Shown here: in pieces, positions 44,909 to 55,300 of the stretch
How positions within the stretch are numbered: position 1 is the first letter of the stretch
How the letters are laid out: every line of letters begins with the position of its first letter
Source of the DNA: Escherichia phage MIZ6
Strand: one strand, 5' to 3'
Sequence record: OR192075.1
DNA length: 64,000 bases
The notes under the pieces: generated by a model
The model's database searches: none
What the model was told of the DNA's origin: nothing
What the model saw: the letters and a program-made list of their open reading frames with translations, nothing else
Program-made: the position numbers and the translations under genes

Positions 44909-45163
44909 ATGACAGAAGACATTTTGTTAAAACTCTATGATCGTCTGGATAACGAATTAGCAACATTGCGGGGTGAAGTTCTCTATTTGTCTAAATGCAA
45001 TACAGATCTGCTTAAGCAGATTGCAGAAAGGGATGATCAAATAAAATCCCTTTCAGGTGCATTACGTGATCGCGACAAGGCATTAGAGATTTTACAGCGT
45101 GTTACCAATAAGGAAGAATTAAAAGACTTCTTACATGGTTATGCTCATGCCATCGATCTATAA
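44909..45163 (+). CDS. hypothetical coiled-coil protein encoded on the opposite strand
   Basis: 84 aa plus-strand ORF in an otherwise minus-strand block; RBS CGAGGA 8 nt upstream; TAATAAATA motif upstream. Confidence 0.4.
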   Translation: MTEDILLKLYDRLDNELATLRGEVLYLSKCNTDLLKQIAERDDQIKSLSGALRDRDKALEILQRVTNKEELKDFLHGYAHAIDL

Positions 45164-45193
45164 TAAAAAAGCCCGTCAATGACGGGCTTAATC

Positions 45194-46015
45194 TTATGCA
45201 TCCTTCCAAACTTTCCTTGCGTCGTATTTCTTGCCTTTTGACATAAACTGATATGTAGGCATATAGATAATATTGCTCCAGTCTTTCGGGCTAATCTCAA
45301 CAAGTTTTGTTTTAATGTGTCCCGGTAGATATGCTTTGATCATGTGGTCACTACCACGCATACCTTTTACATCGCTCCATTTGATTTTTAAGCGTGTTTT
45401 ATTGCTCAAGGTAGGAGTAGATGCATATTGCTTTAAAAGTGCCTCTAAAAACTGCTGACGGGCTTTAGGCGTTACATAGTGTAAGTTAAGACCCAGCATT
45501 ACAGTATTACCCGCCTTTGTCTTAGAATCACCCAGACAAATGATCAGCGGGAAAACATCCCAATATGGCAAAGTGTCTTTATACTTCGCATCATACATAA
45601 AGGTATAGATTCGCCCTACTTGCGGTTTTACAATCTGGTGTCCCTTTATTCCCGCTTTTATTGTTTTAGTAAACCACTCCTGTGATTTTTCTTTAGGACG
45701 ACTCTTTGATACAGCACGCATAGACGCACGAAAATCATTAATCATCATCATTGCGCGTTGCTGCTTATTGAGACCCTTTGCACTTTTCCCTTTTAGTTTT
45801 TCAACTTCTATTGCTGTTTTAATTTCGCTGGCATAACGAGACATACTTTTAGTGAAAGTCGCATAGGCTATTCCCTTAGAATCTGCAAATGCTTTAGCTG
45901 TCATTCCTTTGGCTTTTGTTTTCGCAAATTCTACACCCAATTCGACCCACTGTTTAGACTTTCTTTTTTGGGGAGACGGCTTTTCGTCTTCGGTGATTAT
46001 TTCAAATACGCTCAT
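45194..46015 (-). CDS. 2: DNA end protector protein (gp2-like) by position and size
   Basis: 273 aa basic protein between gp3 and gp4, matching the size of T4 gp2 (274 aa). Confidence 0.6.
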   Translation of the reverse strand: MSVFEIITEDEKPSPQKRKSKQWVELGVEFAKTKAKGMTAKAFADSKGIAYATFTKSMSRYASEIKTAIEVEKLKGKSAKGLNKQQRAMMMINDFRASMRAVSKSRPKEKSQEWFTKTIKAGIKGHQIVKPQVGRIYTFMYDAKYKDTLPYWDVFPLIICLGDSKTKAGNTVMLGLNLHYVTPKARQQFLEALLKQYASTPTLSNKTRLKIKWSDVKGMRGSDHMIKAYLPGHIKTKLVEISPKDWSNIIYMPTYQFMSKGKKYDARKVWKDA

Positions 46016-46026
46016 AATATTATCCT

Positions 46027-46500
46027 CTATTTGTTAAGCCCTTTAAAGCCAAACACTTTCTTTAATGCATGTTCGGTTATGATCTTAAACTCCATGTTAT
46101 GCTTTTGGCATAATTTCACGGCAGCTAACCATTTTTCAGTATTTTTTGTGTATGTCCATACTTCATGCATATATCGTTGCTTTGTCTTCGCGGTCATTCT
46201 TTTTGGCTTTTCCGGTGGCCTTGTCTCTTTAGCTGGTTTAACTTCCCATAAATGCTCCTTGCCATCATCAAACTTAACGTAAAAATCCATAAAGTATCTG
46301 TGTCTTTTTCCGTCGGTTGATGACTCATAAGGAATTACTACGGTCTCAGATCCCCATTTTGCAACTCTAGGATTGCGGTCTAAAAATTTCATTATATGTA
46401 ATTCCCAACTTGACCTGTAGACGATTTTTTTCAGGTCGCCTTTATACTTCTCAGGATTTTCAGGTCTATATTTACCCTTATATGTGTTGCAATTACCCAT
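46027..46500 (-). CDS. 4: head completion protein (gp4-like)
   Basis: 157 aa; GNCNTYKGKYRPENPEKYKGD...IVYRSSWE...VVIPYES...HRYFMDF...EVKP...KWLAAVKLCQKHNMEFKIITE parallels T4 gp4 as recalled. Confidence 0.75.
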   Translation of the reverse strand: MGNCNTYKGKYRPENPEKYKGDLKKIVYRSSWELHIMKFLDRNPRVAKWGSETVVIPYESSTDGKRHRYFMDFYVKFDDGKEHLWEVKPAKETRPPEKPKRMTAKTKQRYMHEVWTYTKNTEKWLAAVKLCQKHNMEFKIITEHALKKVFGFKGLNK

Positions 46501-47195
46501 TATACCACCTTCTTCTTGCAGTTGTCACCATGCCATCTAACATAATTTCCCTGATTGGCTGTTTTTCCACAATGAGGACAGGTGAAATACGGACGGGACT
46601 TTGACAATTCACTATATTTTTGTTTCATTTCTGGTGTGTTATGAATACGTTTCCATTTCTCTACGTTTTCTTGTGACAACTTTCTACCCTTACCCGCTTT
46701 AGAGATGTTGTCTCTCCATTCTTGTGTAATTTCTCTTGACGCAATATTTCTTTTATGTTCTTCTGTAAACACTCTACCTTTTAATGAAGCAGATAATTTC
46801 TGTCGATGTTCCTCAGACAATTTAATTCCTTTTCTCTTTCCTTTAGTTGCTTCTGATATTCTGCGTCTAGTCTCTTCGGATCTTTTTCTTCCTGTATGAA
46901 ATTTTCTTGAAGTCTCGACCGCAAGTTTTCTTACCCACTCAAATTGTTTATTGTTATAGTTGGTAGACCCCATCAATATTTTCGCCGCATGTACAACTCC
47001 GTGATGTGTTGGATGCATTTTTGCTAAAAGTTGATGAGCAACAAAATGTTCAGACCCCGTTAACTCCACTATATTTTCTGGACTATCATCGCCTCCCATA
47101 CAACGAGGAATAATATGATGTTTTTCTTTATATCCTTCAAGCGTTCTATGCTTTGCGCGTTCAATTAATCGATCATAATGTTTTTGATAGTCCAT
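46500..47195 (-). mobile_element. free-standing HNH homing endonuclease with NUMOD3 DNA-binding repeats (Mob-like)
   Basis: 231 aa; HNH core EKHHIIPRCMGGDDSPENIVELTGSEHFVAH followed by at least four repeats of G(R/I)K.SEE(T/H)(R/K).(K/R)IS; C-terminal Zn finger CPHCG...C; inserted between gene 4 and gene 53. Confidence 0.8.
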
Positions 47196-47210
47196 TTTAG
47201 CACCCTTTAT

Positions 47211-47218
47211 TATAAATA
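47211..47218 (+). promoter_or_regulatory. T4-type late promoter for gene 53
   Basis: Exact TATAAATA 33 nt upstream of the gene 53 ATG; embedded between inverted repeats AGCACCC (47199-47205) and GGGTGCT (47241-47247). Confidence 0.55.
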
Positions 47219-47250
47219 CATAATACTATTTATCAATTGAGGGTGCTAAA

Positions 47251-47805
47251 ATGCTCTTTTCTTTCTTCCCTGCCATTGAATACAACGGCAAGATGATTAC
47301 TGACATTGTGCGCAATTACCGCGCATATTTCAACGCAATAATTTCTGATTATAACATACAAACATATTACATTCAAGGGAGTCCACGACCGGAACAAGTT
47401 GCATATGAAGTATACGGAAACCAACAACTTTATTGGATCTTGCTGATGCTTAATGACGTATACGATCCGTTCCATGACTGGATCACCGATCAAGAGACAG
47501 CATATGAATCAGCCGAACAGCGATATGCAAATGTAGGAGGAAATCAAGTATTATACCACGTTGATATTGACGGAAACAAGTATTGGAATCTTACCGAATA
47601 TCCGAAAGGATCAAGCAATTGGTATGATAAAGGGGATATTCATCATCGTCATTTGCAGTTTCAAGGTGCACTATCGGCAGTAGACACACTGGAAGATGCG
47701 ATCCTCCGTAATGAGGAACGACGCAAGATCAAGATCATAGATCCTACACAAATTAAACAATTTATTAATGCATTCATTCGAGAAATGGAAAAGGCTGATG
47801 TGTAA
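47251..47805 (+). CDS. 53: baseplate wedge protein gp53
   Basis: 184 aa; MLFSFFPAIEY...YYIQGSPRPEQVAYEVYGNQQLYWILLMLNDVYDPFHDWIT...NVGGNQVLYHVD parallels T4 gp53. Confidence 0.92.
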   Translation: MLFSFFPAIEYNGKMITDIVRNYRAYFNAIISDYNIQTYYIQGSPRPEQVAYEVYGNQQLYWILLMLNDVYDPFHDWITDQETAYESAEQRYANVGGNQVLYHVDIDGNKYWNLTEYPKGSSNWYDKGDIHHRHLQFQGALSAVDTLEDAILRNEERRKIKIIDPTQIKQFINAFIREMEKADV

Positions 47806-47816
47806 GGTGATTAATT

Positions 47817-49616
47817 ATGCTAATGTTTAATAACTCCGTTAAATGGTTTACCGGAATTGTAGAAAACAGGGAAGACCCATTAATGCTGGGGCGTGTTCAG
47901 GTTAGGATTCATGGTATACATCCCTCGCTATCCGCACACGGTGACATTCAAGGTCTTCCAACCGAAGATCTATTATGGATTACGCCAGTACAAGATATTA
48001 CAAGCGCGGCGATCTCCGGTATAGGTCAAAGCCCTACTGGTATTGTTGAAGGTTCAATGGTATTTGGTTTGGCTTTAGATGAACGTTATTTAAACTGCGT
48101 TATTCTGGGTACTATTGCCGGACAATATACAGAGAAACCACTCACTACAGAGGGTTTTTGTGACCCTTCTGGTGCATATCCTCGTTATATTGGTAATGAT
48201 GTTAATATTCTTGCTCGTGGCGGTATTAACCCAGAAACCGGACAAACAACAAAACCTGATAGTGTCTATATTCGAGATGAAAACACTGGAGTTGCAGTAA
48301 ATCCAGACGACGAGCCATTAGACCAAATTCCGGTTGATGATAATCCTGATTTTACAATAGAAAAAATGCTGCGGGGCGATGAGGGATATCGCGAGAAATG
48401 GTATCTTGATTCAGAAGGATATCCGACAATAGGCATCGGGCATTTGATCATTTATAAGAAAACCAGTGATCTTGGTATTATCAATAATGAACTTTCTAAG
48501 CTGGTAGGGCGTGAAGTTACAAACGGAAGACTTACCGCCGAAGAAGTTAGTAAAGTATTTGCCGACGATATAGAAAAGACTCGTCGTGATATGCGCAAAC
48601 ATCCACGAATTGCACCTGTCTATAATAAATGTAATGCCTCTCGTCGCATGGCATTAGAAAATATGGCGTTTCAAATGGGTGTTGGTGGATTGGGTAAATT
48701 TAAGAATAGTCTTGCTGCGATGTTAGCGGAAGAATGGAAACAAGCCTATGATGGATTACGTCAATCTGTATGGGCTAACCAAACTCCAGGACGCTCCAGC
48801 CGTGTTTCTAAAATTATTTTAACTGGTAACTTAGAATCATATGGCGTAATTGCTCCAAAGAAAGAGGAATCAATTTCTGATGATCCGCGAGCACGTTTAA
48901 GAAATGCCCGTATTGCGGCCTATAAGACGCAGAGAGCAGAAGAAGACCCAGAAGCACCGTTTACCCCACAAGACACACGAATCATGTTTAAAGAGCCTAA
49001 GAGTTCGTATTCTGCAAGGTATCCATATAACCATGTGTACGAGTCAGAGAGCGGTCATATTATCGAGATTGATGATACTCCTTCTCATGAGCGATATCAT
49101 CGTAAACATCCTTCTGGTACATTTGAAGAAACCAGACCGGACGGAACGAGGGTAGAAAAGATTGAAGGCGATGATTATCTGATCGTTAAACAAGGCCGGA
49201 AAGTAAACGTCAAGGGTAATTTGCAAGTTGTTGTTGAAGGTGACGCGCAAGTTTATTATATGGGTAATGTGATGCAAACCGTTGATGGTAACGTCACTGA
49301 ATTTATTCGTGGCAATGTTAATCAGACCGTTGAAGGTACTGCTAACATGCATGTTGTTGGTGATGTTATCGCACAGCTTGACGCTAATTTGACGGCTAAC
49401 GTCAAGGGTAATGCTGAATTAATGATCGAGGGTAACACTACCGAAACAATTAAAGGTAACTATGATTTAACCGTTGAGGGTAATTTTAATATGACAGTCA
49501 ATGGCACTAAATCAGATCAGGTTAATGGTGACTGGTCCCGTAATTGTGGTGCAAGCGTTAAAGATATTGCATCTGGTACAGTTAAAATTGATGGTAGCCG
49601 TATTGATCTTGGGTGA
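47817..49616 (+). CDS. 5: baseplate central spike with lysozyme domain (gp5)
   Basis: 599 aa; central T4-lysozyme-like domain (EKMLRGDEGYREKWYLDSEGYPTIGIGHL...MAFQMGVGGLGKF...VWANQTPGRSSRV) and C-terminal beta-helix repeats (VxGN...). Confidence 0.92.
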   Translation: MLMFNNSVKWFTGIVENREDPLMLGRVQVRIHGIHPSLSAHGDIQGLPTEDLLWITPVQDITSAAISGIGQSPTGIVEGSMVFGLALDERYLNCVILGTIAGQYTEKPLTTEGFCDPSGAYPRYIGNDVNILARGGINPETGQTTKPDSVYIRDENTGVAVNPDDEPLDQIPVDDNPDFTIEKMLRGDEGYREKWYLDSEGYPTIGIGHLIIYKKTSDLGIINNELSKLVGREVTNGRLTAEEVSKVFADDIEKTRRDMRKHPRIAPVYNKCNASRRMALENMAFQMGVGGLGKFKNSLAAMLAEEWKQAYDGLRQSVWANQTPGRSSRVSKIILTGNLESYGVIAPKKEESISDDPRARLRNARIAAYKTQRAEEDPEAPFTPQDTRIMFKEPKSSYSARYPYNHVYESESGHIIEIDDTPSHERYHRKHPSGTFEETRPDGTRVEKIEGDDYLIVKQGRKVNVKGNLQVVVEGDAQVYYMGNVMQTVDGNVTEFIRGNVNQTVEGTANMHVVGDVIAQLDANLTANVKGNAELMIEGNTTETIKGNYDLTVEGNFNMTVNGTKSDQVNGDWSRNCGASVKDIASGTVKIDGSRIDLG

Positions 49617-52385: not shown

Positions 52386-55300
52386 TTAAAGCGCCTAGTG
52401 TAACTAGCTTGACAATAGAAAAATTGTCTGCTAATCAGGCGTATATCACATGGGATGACGTAGGCGAAAACTTCTTTTATTTTGTGGAGTTAGCCGAAAC
52501 CAGAACACGAGACGGGGAGATCATCCCCGTCGATGAGTTAAGCTGGGTAAACCTGGGATATACTGCCGAACAAAACTGGTTTGAGGATAAAAACCTTTTT
52601 CCAGAATATTATTACAAGTTTCGTGTAGCAGTAGCCGCAGAAGGATTTGAACAAAGTAAATGGGTTGAGACAGAAGAGTTTCAGACATTTAAAACAAACG
52701 CATATAATTTTTCTATGATGCGAGAGTTCAACCTTGCAAACGAGTTTATAAAGGAAAAATTTACATACGATAATCGAGAGTATGTCAAGTTTAATACTGA
52801 CCTGATTCAAGCATCATTGATGAAGGAAGATTTTGTCTTTAGTCCTGAATATGCAAACATGACAAATATCTCAAACTACATTGTAGTTGATGAGAACTTT
52901 CATGAAATACAGGACCACATAGAAAAAGTTTGTACTGATATAAACCGCACTATGTTAGCGGAAATGAACGGTGTTTTGTACCTTTTCGAACGGTTCCAGC
53001 CGATCGTGAAAGTGTCAAATGATAAAGGCCAATCATGGAAAGCATACAAGGCTTTTAATGACCGTGTAGGCAATCCGGTTTCCCGTACATGCGTTTATCA
53101 GTCTAAAACCACTACTTACGTTTTAGGATATGATCGAATCTTTTACGGACGACAAGCGAGCGATACTCGATGGAGCGCGGACGATGTTCGATTTAGTGAT
53201 GATACGATCACTTTTGCAAAGGTCGGTGACGAAAACGATTTAGGCTTTGACGTTGAGGTCTTTGGTGTATTTTCCAGATTAACAGGTGATACCACAAAAT
53301 ACGCCGAAGCTATGGCGTGTAGTGATGACTATTTGTGGGTTGGTGCTAAAGATGTTATTCGCAGGATTCGTCTTAAGAATACTCCTGTTGATACCGTACA
53401 GGGTTCGCCTACGTTTGGAGAAAAAATATTCGATCCTGATGTTATCCGAGTAACAGGAAATGATAAAGCTGTCATTCAGAAAATGGATGTGATCGACGGT
53501 AAATTGCTTGTATTTGTTACGGGTGAAGTTAAACAGCTTTATCAAGATCCAACTAAACCAGAAAACGTTGTTCCGTCAGATGATGCTGGTGTATACTTAA
53601 TAGGGAGTGATGGTCTGTCTTTTCAGAGAGTATTTGGCAACACTCCGCAGGAAAGGGAATATATTCAGCATGGGTTCAGTAATATGTCAACCAATGGTGA
53701 TGAGGTGTTCATAAGCCATTATAATCATCACTTCGAAAGCATTTTACCTGATCCAGAAACTGCCGAGAAATATGAATTGGGCGAAGCTGTAAAATATTCT
53801 CAGGAGCCAACTTATCTAACTGATAAGAAAATACATCAAACTACTTTCAGAGCAAGTTATGATGATTTGCGTATTTGGGAGTTAGGACCGCAAGCGTATT
53901 ATAACGAGGCTGATTATACATGGATGCGTCGAAACGGTGTCCGTGTGTGGATCACAAATGATAATCGCCCGTTGGTTGTTTATCCAGAGGTTATCTATAC
54001 TCAAGAAGTTGATACGTCTGGCATTCTTGACCAAAATAGGGTCAACCGAGAAGTTTATGATAAAGGGACCGTGACCTGTTATCTTAACAATGTTAAATTT
54101 GAAGGATTCAAACAATATGCATCCGGTGTAATGTTCCATAAAAACACAGGAGAGATCATAGGATTCTATCAATTTAATTATCGTGTTCGTGATCAGGTTG
54201 GTGTATATTGGAAACCTACAAATGTAGCATTTGTTGCTGAATTGCAAAATCAGGTTCGAGAGGTTCCCTGGGTTCCGGTTCACTACGATCGAGAGCAAGA
54301 TCCAGATTTGCGGCCTTTACTGAATAAGATGACCCCTGATAGCTTTTTACTTGAGAACGAAAATTTCAGAAAATTCTCTGAATATTATCTGCAATTCTTA
54401 AGCGATGGTTCAGGAACATATTATAATAAACTAAAAAATCTGATTAAAAACAAATATCCACGCGAGAAAGATGCATATGAGTATCTTTGGTCAGAGATGA
54501 ACAAACGAAACATCTATGCAGATAAAAACAAGCGAGATGCGGTAGTAAGATTCTTTGAATCCCGCAAATCAGATTTTTATTCCACTAAGGGCGTGGAGGC
54601 TTCTTATAAGTTCTTGTTTAAGTTACTTTATAATGAAGATGTGGAAATTGAGGTTGAATCACAAGCCGGACTAGAGTATGATATTGTTGTTAGTTCAACG
54701 AACATTGACGAGGATATCGTAGGTCGCACGATTTATACTCCAACCGGACGGGCTAACGTGACGTATCTTGAAAGGGAATATGAAGGTGGTCGCCTACGCT
54801 GGCGAGTAACCATTCATAACCTGATCGGGCGGTTCGAAGAAGGTCAAGTGATCAAATCAGAGAAAACAGCGTTTGAAGGGATGATCCTTGTTGGTGTACG
54901 TGGTAAAGAGTTGTTGAGTAGTTCAATCGACTATATCAACCGCTCACGAAGCCAATACACCATGAAGATTAAAAGTGCATTGCCAGTTTCGCGCTATGCA
55001 AATGATGTAATGCGATTCGTTCATCCTGTCGGCTTTGGGTTTATCGGTGTTACCCTGCTTACAATGTTCATTAACAGCGGGTTAAGCATGAAGCACACCG
55101 AGACTATAATTCAATCTCTGAAAAATTATAAGTTTGACAGCGGATTGCCTAGCGTGTATCCTGATCGGGTGGCAGACCTTGACGTTGACGGAAACATTAA
55201 GAAAGACCCGCTTACCGGAAAAGCATTATATTTGACTTCACCTTTAATTGGTGAAGAATTTCCGGTTCCTCCTGAATATGATCAGGAGAACAGCGAATTG

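Follow-up and report, generated by a model that had tools for sequence, protein, structure and literature searches.

Free-standing genes for HNH endonucleases are abundant in T4-type phages. In the closest described system, the MobE endonuclease of phage T4 introduces an HNH-dependent nick into phage T2's nrdB, which is the gene downstream of mobE, at nucleotides (nt) 122-126, and mobE is inherited at high frequency, with recombination points falling within the first 189 nt of nrdB (PMC2790892). A gene of the same type is found in the stretch of DNA analyzed here, 64,000 nt of Escherichia phage MIZ6 (OR192075.1), referred to below as the window, where an open reading frame (ORF) for a predicted homing endonuclease lies between the late genes 4 and 53. 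Comparison with related phages indicates that the unit that moves is very probably not this ORF alone but a segment of approximately 46383-47192, composed of the endonuclease gene together with the first 118 nt of gene 4 in re-coded form, because the left junction lies within gene 4 rather than at the end of the ORF. The features on which this proposal rests are as follows.

46500-47195, minus strand: free-standing homing endonuclease ORF of the MobE family, 231 amino acids (aa), identified from the ORF, NUMOD3, PHROG 655, identity to T6 MobE and the annotation in MIZ2
46383-46500, minus strand: re-coded 5' end of gene 4, a co-conversion tract and probable immunity allele, identified from 43 differences in 118 nt and linkage to carriers
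46027-46500, minus strand: gene 4 (head completion or head closure protein), intact, 157 aa, identified from the ORF, profile matches, PHROG and the annotation in Phi1
Between the endonuclease ORF and gene 53: intergenic region of 55 nt
47251-47805, plus strand: gene 53 (baseplate wedge subunit), identified by Pfam Phage_gp53 at 1.4e-58

As an earlier reading made from the sequence alone (the sequence-only reading) had proposed, the endonuclease gene sits at the switch between strands, with gene 4 on its one side and the oppositely oriented gene 53 on the other. The region 45900-47900 is 100% identical to the corresponding regions of Escherichia phages MIZ2 and MIZ3 and 98-99% identical to those of three further phages of the genus Krischvirus (RB49-like Straboviridae).

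The distribution of the gene within this genus is patchy. Among 59 Krischvirus records that match the region, the ORF is present in five (MIZ2, MIZ3, PTE-Eco09, ELT4, and Brandy), and in each of the other 54 the alignment is interrupted by a gap of exactly 695 bp, with the ATG of gene 4 occupying the exact position held by the endonuclease ATG in the carriers. Comparison of the gene 4/53 junction in endonuclease-free relatives, the check that the sequence-only reading had suggested, thus reveals a clean absence and places the insertion at the start codon of gene 4. Rather than an intact orthologue in all relatives, the observation named in that reading as telling against a mobile element, a large majority of close relatives (the same 54 of 59) are without the gene.

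The boundaries of the transferred segment can be set to the base. On the right, carriers and non-carriers have the same 55-nt intergenic sequence and diverge only after the ATGG of the start codon, so that the right flank is the same in both and gene 53 is unaltered by the insertion. On the left, the boundary is found inside gene 4, after nt 118: of the differences between carriers and non-carriers, 43 fall within the gene's first 118 nt and one in the remaining 356 nt. The differences within the tract amount to 14 synonymous and 11 non-synonymous codon changes, and across 50,697 phage records the 118-nt allele, at an identity of at least 97.5%, is confined to the five carriers, with the next best match at 78%. 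The description of the element as inserted at the junction therefore holds for the ORF, although it overlooked the replacement of the first 118 nt of gene 4.

The flanking sequence does not unite the carriers. Identity of the cassette among them is 98.6-99.8%, yet the flanks of MIZ2 are nearest to those of the non-carriers RB49 and W115 (5-8 and 9-14 mismatches in the two flanks) and farther from those of the carriers ELT4 and Brandy (10-11 and 31-39 mismatches), while the flanks of Brandy are nearest to those of UPWr_E1, also a non-carrier. This pattern of flanks and cassette is the one expected if the element had spread laterally by gene conversion, not if an old gene had been lost 54 times.

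By analogy with MobE of T4, the process would run as follows. In a mixed infection, the enzyme encoded in the window would nick or cut an endonuclease-free gene 4 at some 90-120 nt into the gene; recombinational repair, with the carrier genome as source, would then copy the endonuclease gene along with the 5' end of gene 4 next to it, and the 43 substitutions of the carriers would make their own gene 4 uncuttable.

In the protein itself, three regions are distinguishable in sequence and model.

47034-47126, minus strand: HNH catalytic core, residues 24-54 (E-K-HH-IIPRCMGG...N...LT..EH..AH), identified from invariance, profile alignment to McrA and the AlphaFold model
46593-46898, minus strand: NUMOD3-type repeat region, residues 100-201, presumed DNA-binding, with four clear and two degenerate units, identified from PF07460, a motif count and the helices of the model
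46515-46589, minus strand: C-terminal C-x2-C ... W-H-x3-C zinc module, residues 203-227, identified from invariant ligands and weak profile similarity

The Pfam NUMOD3 model (PF07460) matches above its curated gathering cut-off (29.6 bits against 20.4, E 6.7e-7), whereas single-sequence matches to the Pfam HNH models fall below theirs (E 0.012-0.07). Membership in the HNH group is nevertheless supported in three ways: by the match to PHROG 655, “homing endonuclease,” at 2e-64; by similarity over the full length to MobE of phage T6 (40.9% identity over 99% of the query, E 6e-36, tblastn); and by a match of the family profile to the HNH motif of McrA (6ghc) over residues 21-50 at an E of 2e-4. 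The same profile also matches the HNH motif of a group II intron maturase (E 0.005), and the gene is annotated as a homing endonuclease in the MIZ2 record. In an alignment of 54 homologues, residues H26, H27, P30, G35, N41, E49, and H50 are invariant, and the order of the HNH catalytic motif (general-base His, Asn, metal-binding His) is retained, with H26/H27, N41, and H50, together with H54, invariant or nearly so. Invariant as well are C206, C209, H222, and C226 of the zinc module, which shows weak profile similarity to the eL43 zinc ribbon and to a CTCF finger.

The motif S/T-x-E-x2-3-[KR]-x-[IL]-S is matched by four of the repeats, which lie at residues 106, 127, 144, and 187, and there are two further, degenerate units, so that the count of “at least four” made from the sequence alone was roughly right; Pfam's own model scores just one or two of them. 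In the AlphaFold model (mean confidence score, pLDDT, 90.9), strands 24-27 and 42-45 and helix 47-60 are predicted to form a beta-beta-alpha core over residues 24-60, the NUMOD3 region is made up of six short helices, and the C terminus is closed by a small zinc module of beta-beta-alpha form. Searches with the whole model for similar folds return HNH domains, weakly. The predicted product of 46500-47195 is thus a free-standing homing endonuclease of the MobE family that combines HNH, NUMOD3, and zinc modules, of which the first reading of this DNA had already named the HNH and NUMOD3 parts.

Insertion at a start codon would have consequences for how both the new gene and the displaced one are expressed, and three short elements are relevant to these.

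47211-47218, plus strand: TATAAATA, predicted late promoter (T4 type) of gene 53, 33 nt ahead of that gene's ATG, identified from the spacing of all exact copies to ORF starts
47227-47234, minus strand: late-promoter-like GATAAATA, a 7/8 match, 32 nt before the endonuclease ATG, with a spacing that mirrors that of the gene 53 promoter
46504-46511, minus strand: new Shine-Dalgarno (SD) sequence of gene 4, AAGGTGGT, in the last codons of the endonuclease gene, read from the sequence and scored by anti-SD energy

The late promoter assigned earlier to gene 53 is credible, as the window contains four exact copies of TATAAATA and each of them precedes a same-strand ORF start by 28-34 nt. The motif is depleted relative to dinucleotide shuffles (exact copies, 4 where 6.1 are expected; copies with one mismatch, 84 versus 135.5 +/- 12), which is consistent with selection against spurious late promoters. 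Leftward, GATAAATA is the presumed promoter of an operon formed by the endonuclease gene, gene 4, and gene 2. Since the endonuclease ORF begins at the start of the naive gene 4, it would use the late promoter (GATAAATA), the leader, and the ribosome-binding site (RBS) of that gene. Within 46500-47195 on the minus strand, the sole match to TATAAATA with one mismatch is TATAAAGA (47125-47132), inside the endonuclease coding sequence and some 625 nt upstream of the gene 4 ATG; no site like TATAAATA, at up to one mismatch, is found there at the 28-34 nt spacing before gene 4, nor is there a terminator-like site within the endonuclease gene. On these grounds the endonuclease gene appears to be the first cistron of a late operon with genes 4 and 2. 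Gene 4, now second, would be translated from AAGGTGGT by way of the TAATG overlap of its ATG with the endonuclease stop codon. Predicted anti-SD pairing is -8.6 kcal/mol for AAGGTGGT, as against -4.5 for the native gene 4 site that now serves the endonuclease.

Two matches to sigma-70-type promoters were also noted. The one from 47236 to 47209 on the minus strand (11/12; TTGATA, 16-nt spacer, TATAAT) points toward the endonuclease gene and gene 4, with a start some 7 nt before the AUG, and is likewise present in endonuclease-free relatives, in which the region is identical; it was judged a by-product of the AT-rich sequence of the late promoters. The second, from 46528 to 46499, overlaps the ATG of gene 4.

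Several points weigh against the proposal of a transferred cassette with its own immunity tract. The donor has not been found: the nearest relative outside the five carriers is just 62% identical, and a search of 5.8 billion sequences returned no protein between that value and the query's own 90%-identity cluster. It is conceivable in principle that the 118-nt allele is a polymorphism of greater age, which simply recombined along with the endonuclease gene. The activity of the enzyme, the choice between a nick and a double-strand break, and the target site are all inferred by analogy, and the leftward late promoter, itself a prediction, is just a 7/8 match.

Variation at this end of gene 4 extends beyond the carriers. 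A third allele occurs in the endonuclease-free Krischvirus phages G2494, JEP8, Whisky, KMB43, ELT3, and FL04; it has the short stretches RPENPEKY and SSWELHI in common with the endonuclease-linked allele and is longer by one codon. The 5' end of gene 4 can therefore be regarded as a local hot spot of polymorphism.

Outside Krischvirus, the association between the endonuclease and gene 4 recurs. Homologues with 44-62% identity are positioned directly upstream of gene 4 in all 12 of the further lineages that were examined, namely Tegunavirus, Gaprivervirus, Tulanevirus, Jiaodavirus, a Clarke-type Klebsiella phage, Gualtarvirus, Mosugukvirus, and five metagenomic contigs. The nearest among named phages (44-61%), all adjoining gene 4 on its upstream side, come from phages of Yersinia (TG1), Escherichia (UPEC07), Aeromonas (25), Klebsiella (KP182, 15882-3-1, and Clarke_MM3), Providencia (PSTRCR_121), and Pectobacterium (PM2), and the five metagenomic relatives (45-62%) share the same context. 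Those annotated as Straboviridae HNH genes, i.e. PHG25p128nc of phage 25 and the genes of TG1, Yersinia phage phiR1-RT (g148), Klebsiella phage KpV477, KP182, and UPEC07, are the closest homologues (52-61% identity) and have both the position upstream of gene 4 and the domain order of the window gene. In phage 25 adjacency to gene 4 is kept even though the other neighbor is gene 5.1 and not gene 53, and its record remarks that the endonuclease is “not conserved in 44RR.”

The patchiness and the signature in gene 4 are seen again in Jiaodavirus. Such a gene is present in 36 of the 149 records of phages of this type, and comparison of the carriers KP182 and 15882-3-1 with the non-carrier Mineola shows gene 4 to have diverged only in its first 150-165 nt. 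For the Gaprivervirus pair UPEC07 and VR7, 93 mismatches are spread over the whole of gene 4 and a conversion tract cannot be delimited. The right junction varies by lineage: exactly at the start codon in the window, it lies just after the promoter pair in 15882-3-1, where the element has its own SD, and the UPEC07 cassette brings its own TATAAATA. A late-type promoter lies ahead of the endonuclease gene in all of the cases examined. A decayed copy is found in PM2 (1501-2031), in which an N-terminal ORF of 129 aa is followed by zinc-module coding in another frame, with the middle deleted; such decay is as expected from the life cycle of elements of this kind.

In several of the related cassettes, the endonuclease ORF overlaps the first 11 nt of a gene 4 that contains a +1 frameshift, whereas gene 4 of the window is intact. 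Six endonuclease-associated alleles (TG1, at about 2583; KP182, 2486-2936; 15882-3-1, 1657-2107; PM2, 2032-2482, where the decayed endonuclease copy is still joined to it; and two metagenomic contigs) have one extra base in the same place, right after a TTT codon, in the layout ...TGGGA[AG]-NNN-TTT-[C/T]-(GTN)ATG.... The 0 frame stops 7-10 codons on, and the +1 frame continues as a normal gene 4 product (gp4). By comparison, all nine gene 4 alleles examined from phages without an upstream endonuclease are in frame (Fisher p = 0.046). In the annotation of these relatives, the gene appears either as two “head closure” coding sequences or as a truncated protein of 117 aa. At the frameshift site of prfB, an SD-like element, a 3-nt spacer, and a slippery codon direct a +1 shift, and the layout in gene 4 resembles that arrangement. 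Expression of gene 4 in two pieces, with a restart at the nearby AUG, fits equally well. Because the N termini of gp4 are shared among the frameshifted alleles, the change seems to have traveled with the cassette rather than to have arisen repeatedly.

A wider proposal can be built on these alleles. It would have a MobE-like nickase lineage dedicated to gene 4 across the Straboviridae, whose cis immunity takes the form of a re-coded 5' end of gene 4; in sister alleles this end would include the +1 site GGGA[AG]-NNN-UUU-[CU], forcing +1 frameshifting or production of two polypeptides, and in the window it would consist only of the 43 substitutions. We hold this tentatively and consider it rather doubtful in its entirety; if true, it would represent endonuclease-driven recoding of an essential virion gene. 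A search of the literature found no paper on the gene-4-associated endonuclease gene or on a frameshifted gene 4.

The intergenic region upstream of the endonuclease gene raises a separate set of questions. The sequence-only reading had pointed to inverted repeats of 7 bp around the gene 53 promoter and offered two interpretations, a regulatory hairpin or the remnant of a homing site. The repeat exists, at twice the stated length.

47193-47206: left arm, 14 bp, CATTTTAGCACCCT, covering the minus-strand gene's SD, spacer, and start codon (that gene is the endonuclease gene here and gene 4 where the endonuclease is absent)
47240-47253: right arm, 14 bp, AGGGTGCTAAAATG, covering the SD, spacer, and ATG of gene 53

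The repeat is perfect over 14 bp, with both start codons included, and 89% matched over 19 nt. No perfect inverted repeat in the window whose loop is up to 80 nt is longer, and the only other of at least 12 bp under that limit is TGATAAAGCTGT (53461-53544, with a 60-nt loop). A stretch of 61 nt that contains both arms is found base for base in RB49, Phi1, W115, UPWr_E1, and G2494, all of them endonuclease-free, from which it follows that the repeat predates the insertion. T4, VR7, Mineola, and TG1 share the same gene 4/53 architecture of two inverted modules, each with late promoter, leader, and SD, and in TG1 the palindrome reaches 16 bp, again perfect. The repeat is native to the locus: two late genes diverge from here, their translation-initiation regions mirror each other, and a crossing pair of late promoters lies between these. 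Such a repeat necessarily results where divergent genes have similar SD and ATG elements, and only the identity of a 5-nt spacer (CTAAA) exceeds what that similarity gives.

Among the alternatives to be weighed, the one that survives best concerns this same palindrome, which might act as a regulatory hairpin in RNA. Transcripts reading through the region would fold so as to hide the downstream RBS and AUG, while late transcripts, beginning in the loop, would be translatable; an endonuclease gene placed at the start of gene 4 would inherit such a gate, so that the idea is compatible with transfer of the cassette by homing. Late transcription is predicted to start near 47224 (plus strand) and near 47221 (minus strand), both inside the loop, so each late mRNA would hold only one arm, and the leaders predicted for these mRNAs are unstructured (z -0.75 and +1.14). 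By contrast, the complete repeat has a folding energy of -28.4 or -27.9 kcal/mol (z -7.6 and -7.0) on either strand. Its exceptional length within the window, the inclusion in the matched arms of the non-SD spacer, its retention in eight of nine Krischvirus loci, and the longer palindrome at the same place in TG1 also favor a gate. Hairpins that sequester an RBS and have late promoters inside them are known for e, soc, 49, and I-TevI of T4, and a hairpin is known for mobE of phage Aeh1. As in the T4 cases, the arms would pair over SD and AUG with a late promoter between them; the structure in the window differs in being symmetric and serving two divergent genes. A hairpin gate is nonetheless unlikely. 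The repeat arises automatically from the two initiation regions, no promoter was identified from which transcripts would read through the region, one arm in ELT4 has a C-to-A change without compensation in the other, no covariation is seen within the genus, and in T4, VR7, and Mineola the symmetry lies mostly in the promoter and SD elements themselves.

A different hairpin, one that would hide the endonuclease AUG through a 10-bp repeat (47079-47088 with 47185-47194), appears in the minimum-energy fold but was treated as due to chance: the z of the fold is just -1.4, accessibility of the SD and AUG is not below that of codon-shuffled controls, and 12 homologues show no consistent pairing. Unlike in Aeh1 mobE, a hairpin sequestering the endonuclease's own RBS is thus not supported in the window.

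Whether the enzyme is still active bears on a second alternative, in which the gene is a recently immobilized or inactive endonuclease that persists since its deletion would remove the RBS of gene 4 and disturb the late operon. In favor of this view, gene 4 would now depend on an RBS inside the endonuclease gene, decayed copies occur elsewhere, as in PM2, and T4 itself has mob genes of undetermined activity (PMC2988022, Table 1). Given that all catalytic and zinc-ligand residues are intact and that all five copies are full length, loss of activity in the window seems improbable.

Less probable again is that the ORF is an old resident gene, not actively homing, which was deleted in most Krischvirus lineages. 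Presence and absence alone give no direction, and the GC content of the ORF, 36.9%, is near the 37.1% of gene 4. Independent deletions would, however, have had to remove the ORF exactly and, in 54 genomes, to return the 5' end of gene 4 to the RB49 type. Nor are the carriers clustered by their flanks, which differ more than the nearly identical cassettes do, and in other genera, too, related endonuclease genes are present at this locus in some phages and absent from others. We therefore regard this account as having very little chance of being correct. The weakest alternative, that the inverted repeat is the remnant of a homing site or a target-site duplication left by the insertion, draws on the fact that the repeat abuts the endonuclease start codon but is scarcely credible and can be ruled out, as the same repeat is present in the five endonuclease-free junctions of identical sequence and as homing by double-strand-break repair makes no duplications (established knowledge; reviewed in PMC2988022).

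With transfer of the cassette, including its re-coded tract, standing as the preferred account, the surroundings of the locus can be considered. Two further genes complete its immediate neighborhood.

45194-46015, minus strand: gene 2
47817-49616, plus strand: gene 5

Among the minus-strand late genes, a plus-strand ORF of 84 aa (44909-45163), a “hypothetical protein” in relatives, is separated from the end of gene 2 by a strong terminator-like hairpin (45169-45189; 9 bp, 6 of them GC); a different gene takes the place of this ORF in Phi1 and PTE-Eco09. A search of 45000-48000 against Rfam found no family at E up to 1. The gp4 of the window strongly matches the Pfam TnsA-like endonuclease N-terminal domain (E 4e-21) as well as PHROGs annotated as endonucleases, and because of these matches the “head closure” protein appears to have a restriction-endonuclease-like fold.

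Other endonuclease genes occur near gene 4. In Yersinia phage P8, a GIY-YIG (seg-like) gene (1432-2079) is situated between genes 4 and 2 and has NUMOD3 repeats and a C-terminal CxxC...WHxxxC zinc module like those of the HNH genes at gene 4, so that, by sequence, a different nuclease head is combined with the same DNA-binding tail at a neighboring site. MobB-like “putative mobile endonuclease” genes follow gene 2 in VR7, UPEC07, and PSTRCR_121. Judged from these arrangements, the block of genes 53, 4, 2, and 3 has up to three distinct endonuclease insertion sites and is a general hot spot.

The element is in itself ordinary, a further MobE-type free-standing HNH endonuclease gene that is already labeled “homing endonuclease” in GenBank, and as a gene it adds little. 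Its worth lies in providing a clean natural example with boundaries exact to the base, in which the sharp 118-nt co-converted tract points to the expected position of the cut; with the tract so sharply delimited, the target site is directly testable. Added value comes from the capture of the expression signals of gene 4 by a selfish gene, on which translation of an essential downstream gene would now depend, and from the fidelity of the lineage to its target across many genera. There is also a problem of annotation, as gene 4 is repeatedly labeled truncated or split in endonuclease-carrying relatives.

How far, then, does this locus conform to the systems already described? Like MobE of T4 and T6, with which it shares full-length homology, the window protein has an N-terminal HNH motif followed by NUMOD3 repeats and a C-terminal CxxC...WHxxxC module. 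Its gene, too, is free-standing, patchy in distribution, and located directly upstream of a conserved gene whose 5' end is converted, with which it shares a TAATG-type overlap of stop and start codons. The converted tract ends at nt 118 of gene 4; MobE nicks nrdB at nt 122-126, with the recombination point inside the first 189 nt (PMC2790892). Homology with common domain order and a patchy free-standing ORF are thus present, together with a signature of co-conversion seen by comparison of genomes.

The two differ in locus and in the manner in which they are expressed. The gene in the window occupies the gene 4/53 junction, whereas mobE lies between nrdA and nrdB; mobE is promoterless, translationally coupled to the upstream nrdA, and contains an internal terminator (PMC2790892), while the window gene is predicted to be the first cistron behind a late promoter, with a resident RBS and an essential downstream gene coupled to it. 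A parallel in mechanism outside the family is the intronless homing of T4 SegG and SegF, in which, as proposed here, the cut is made in a conserved neighbor, flanking markers are co-converted, and the polymorphisms of the carrier provide immunity (PMC2988022). SegG and SegF are GIY-YIG enzymes and that of the window belongs to the HNH class.

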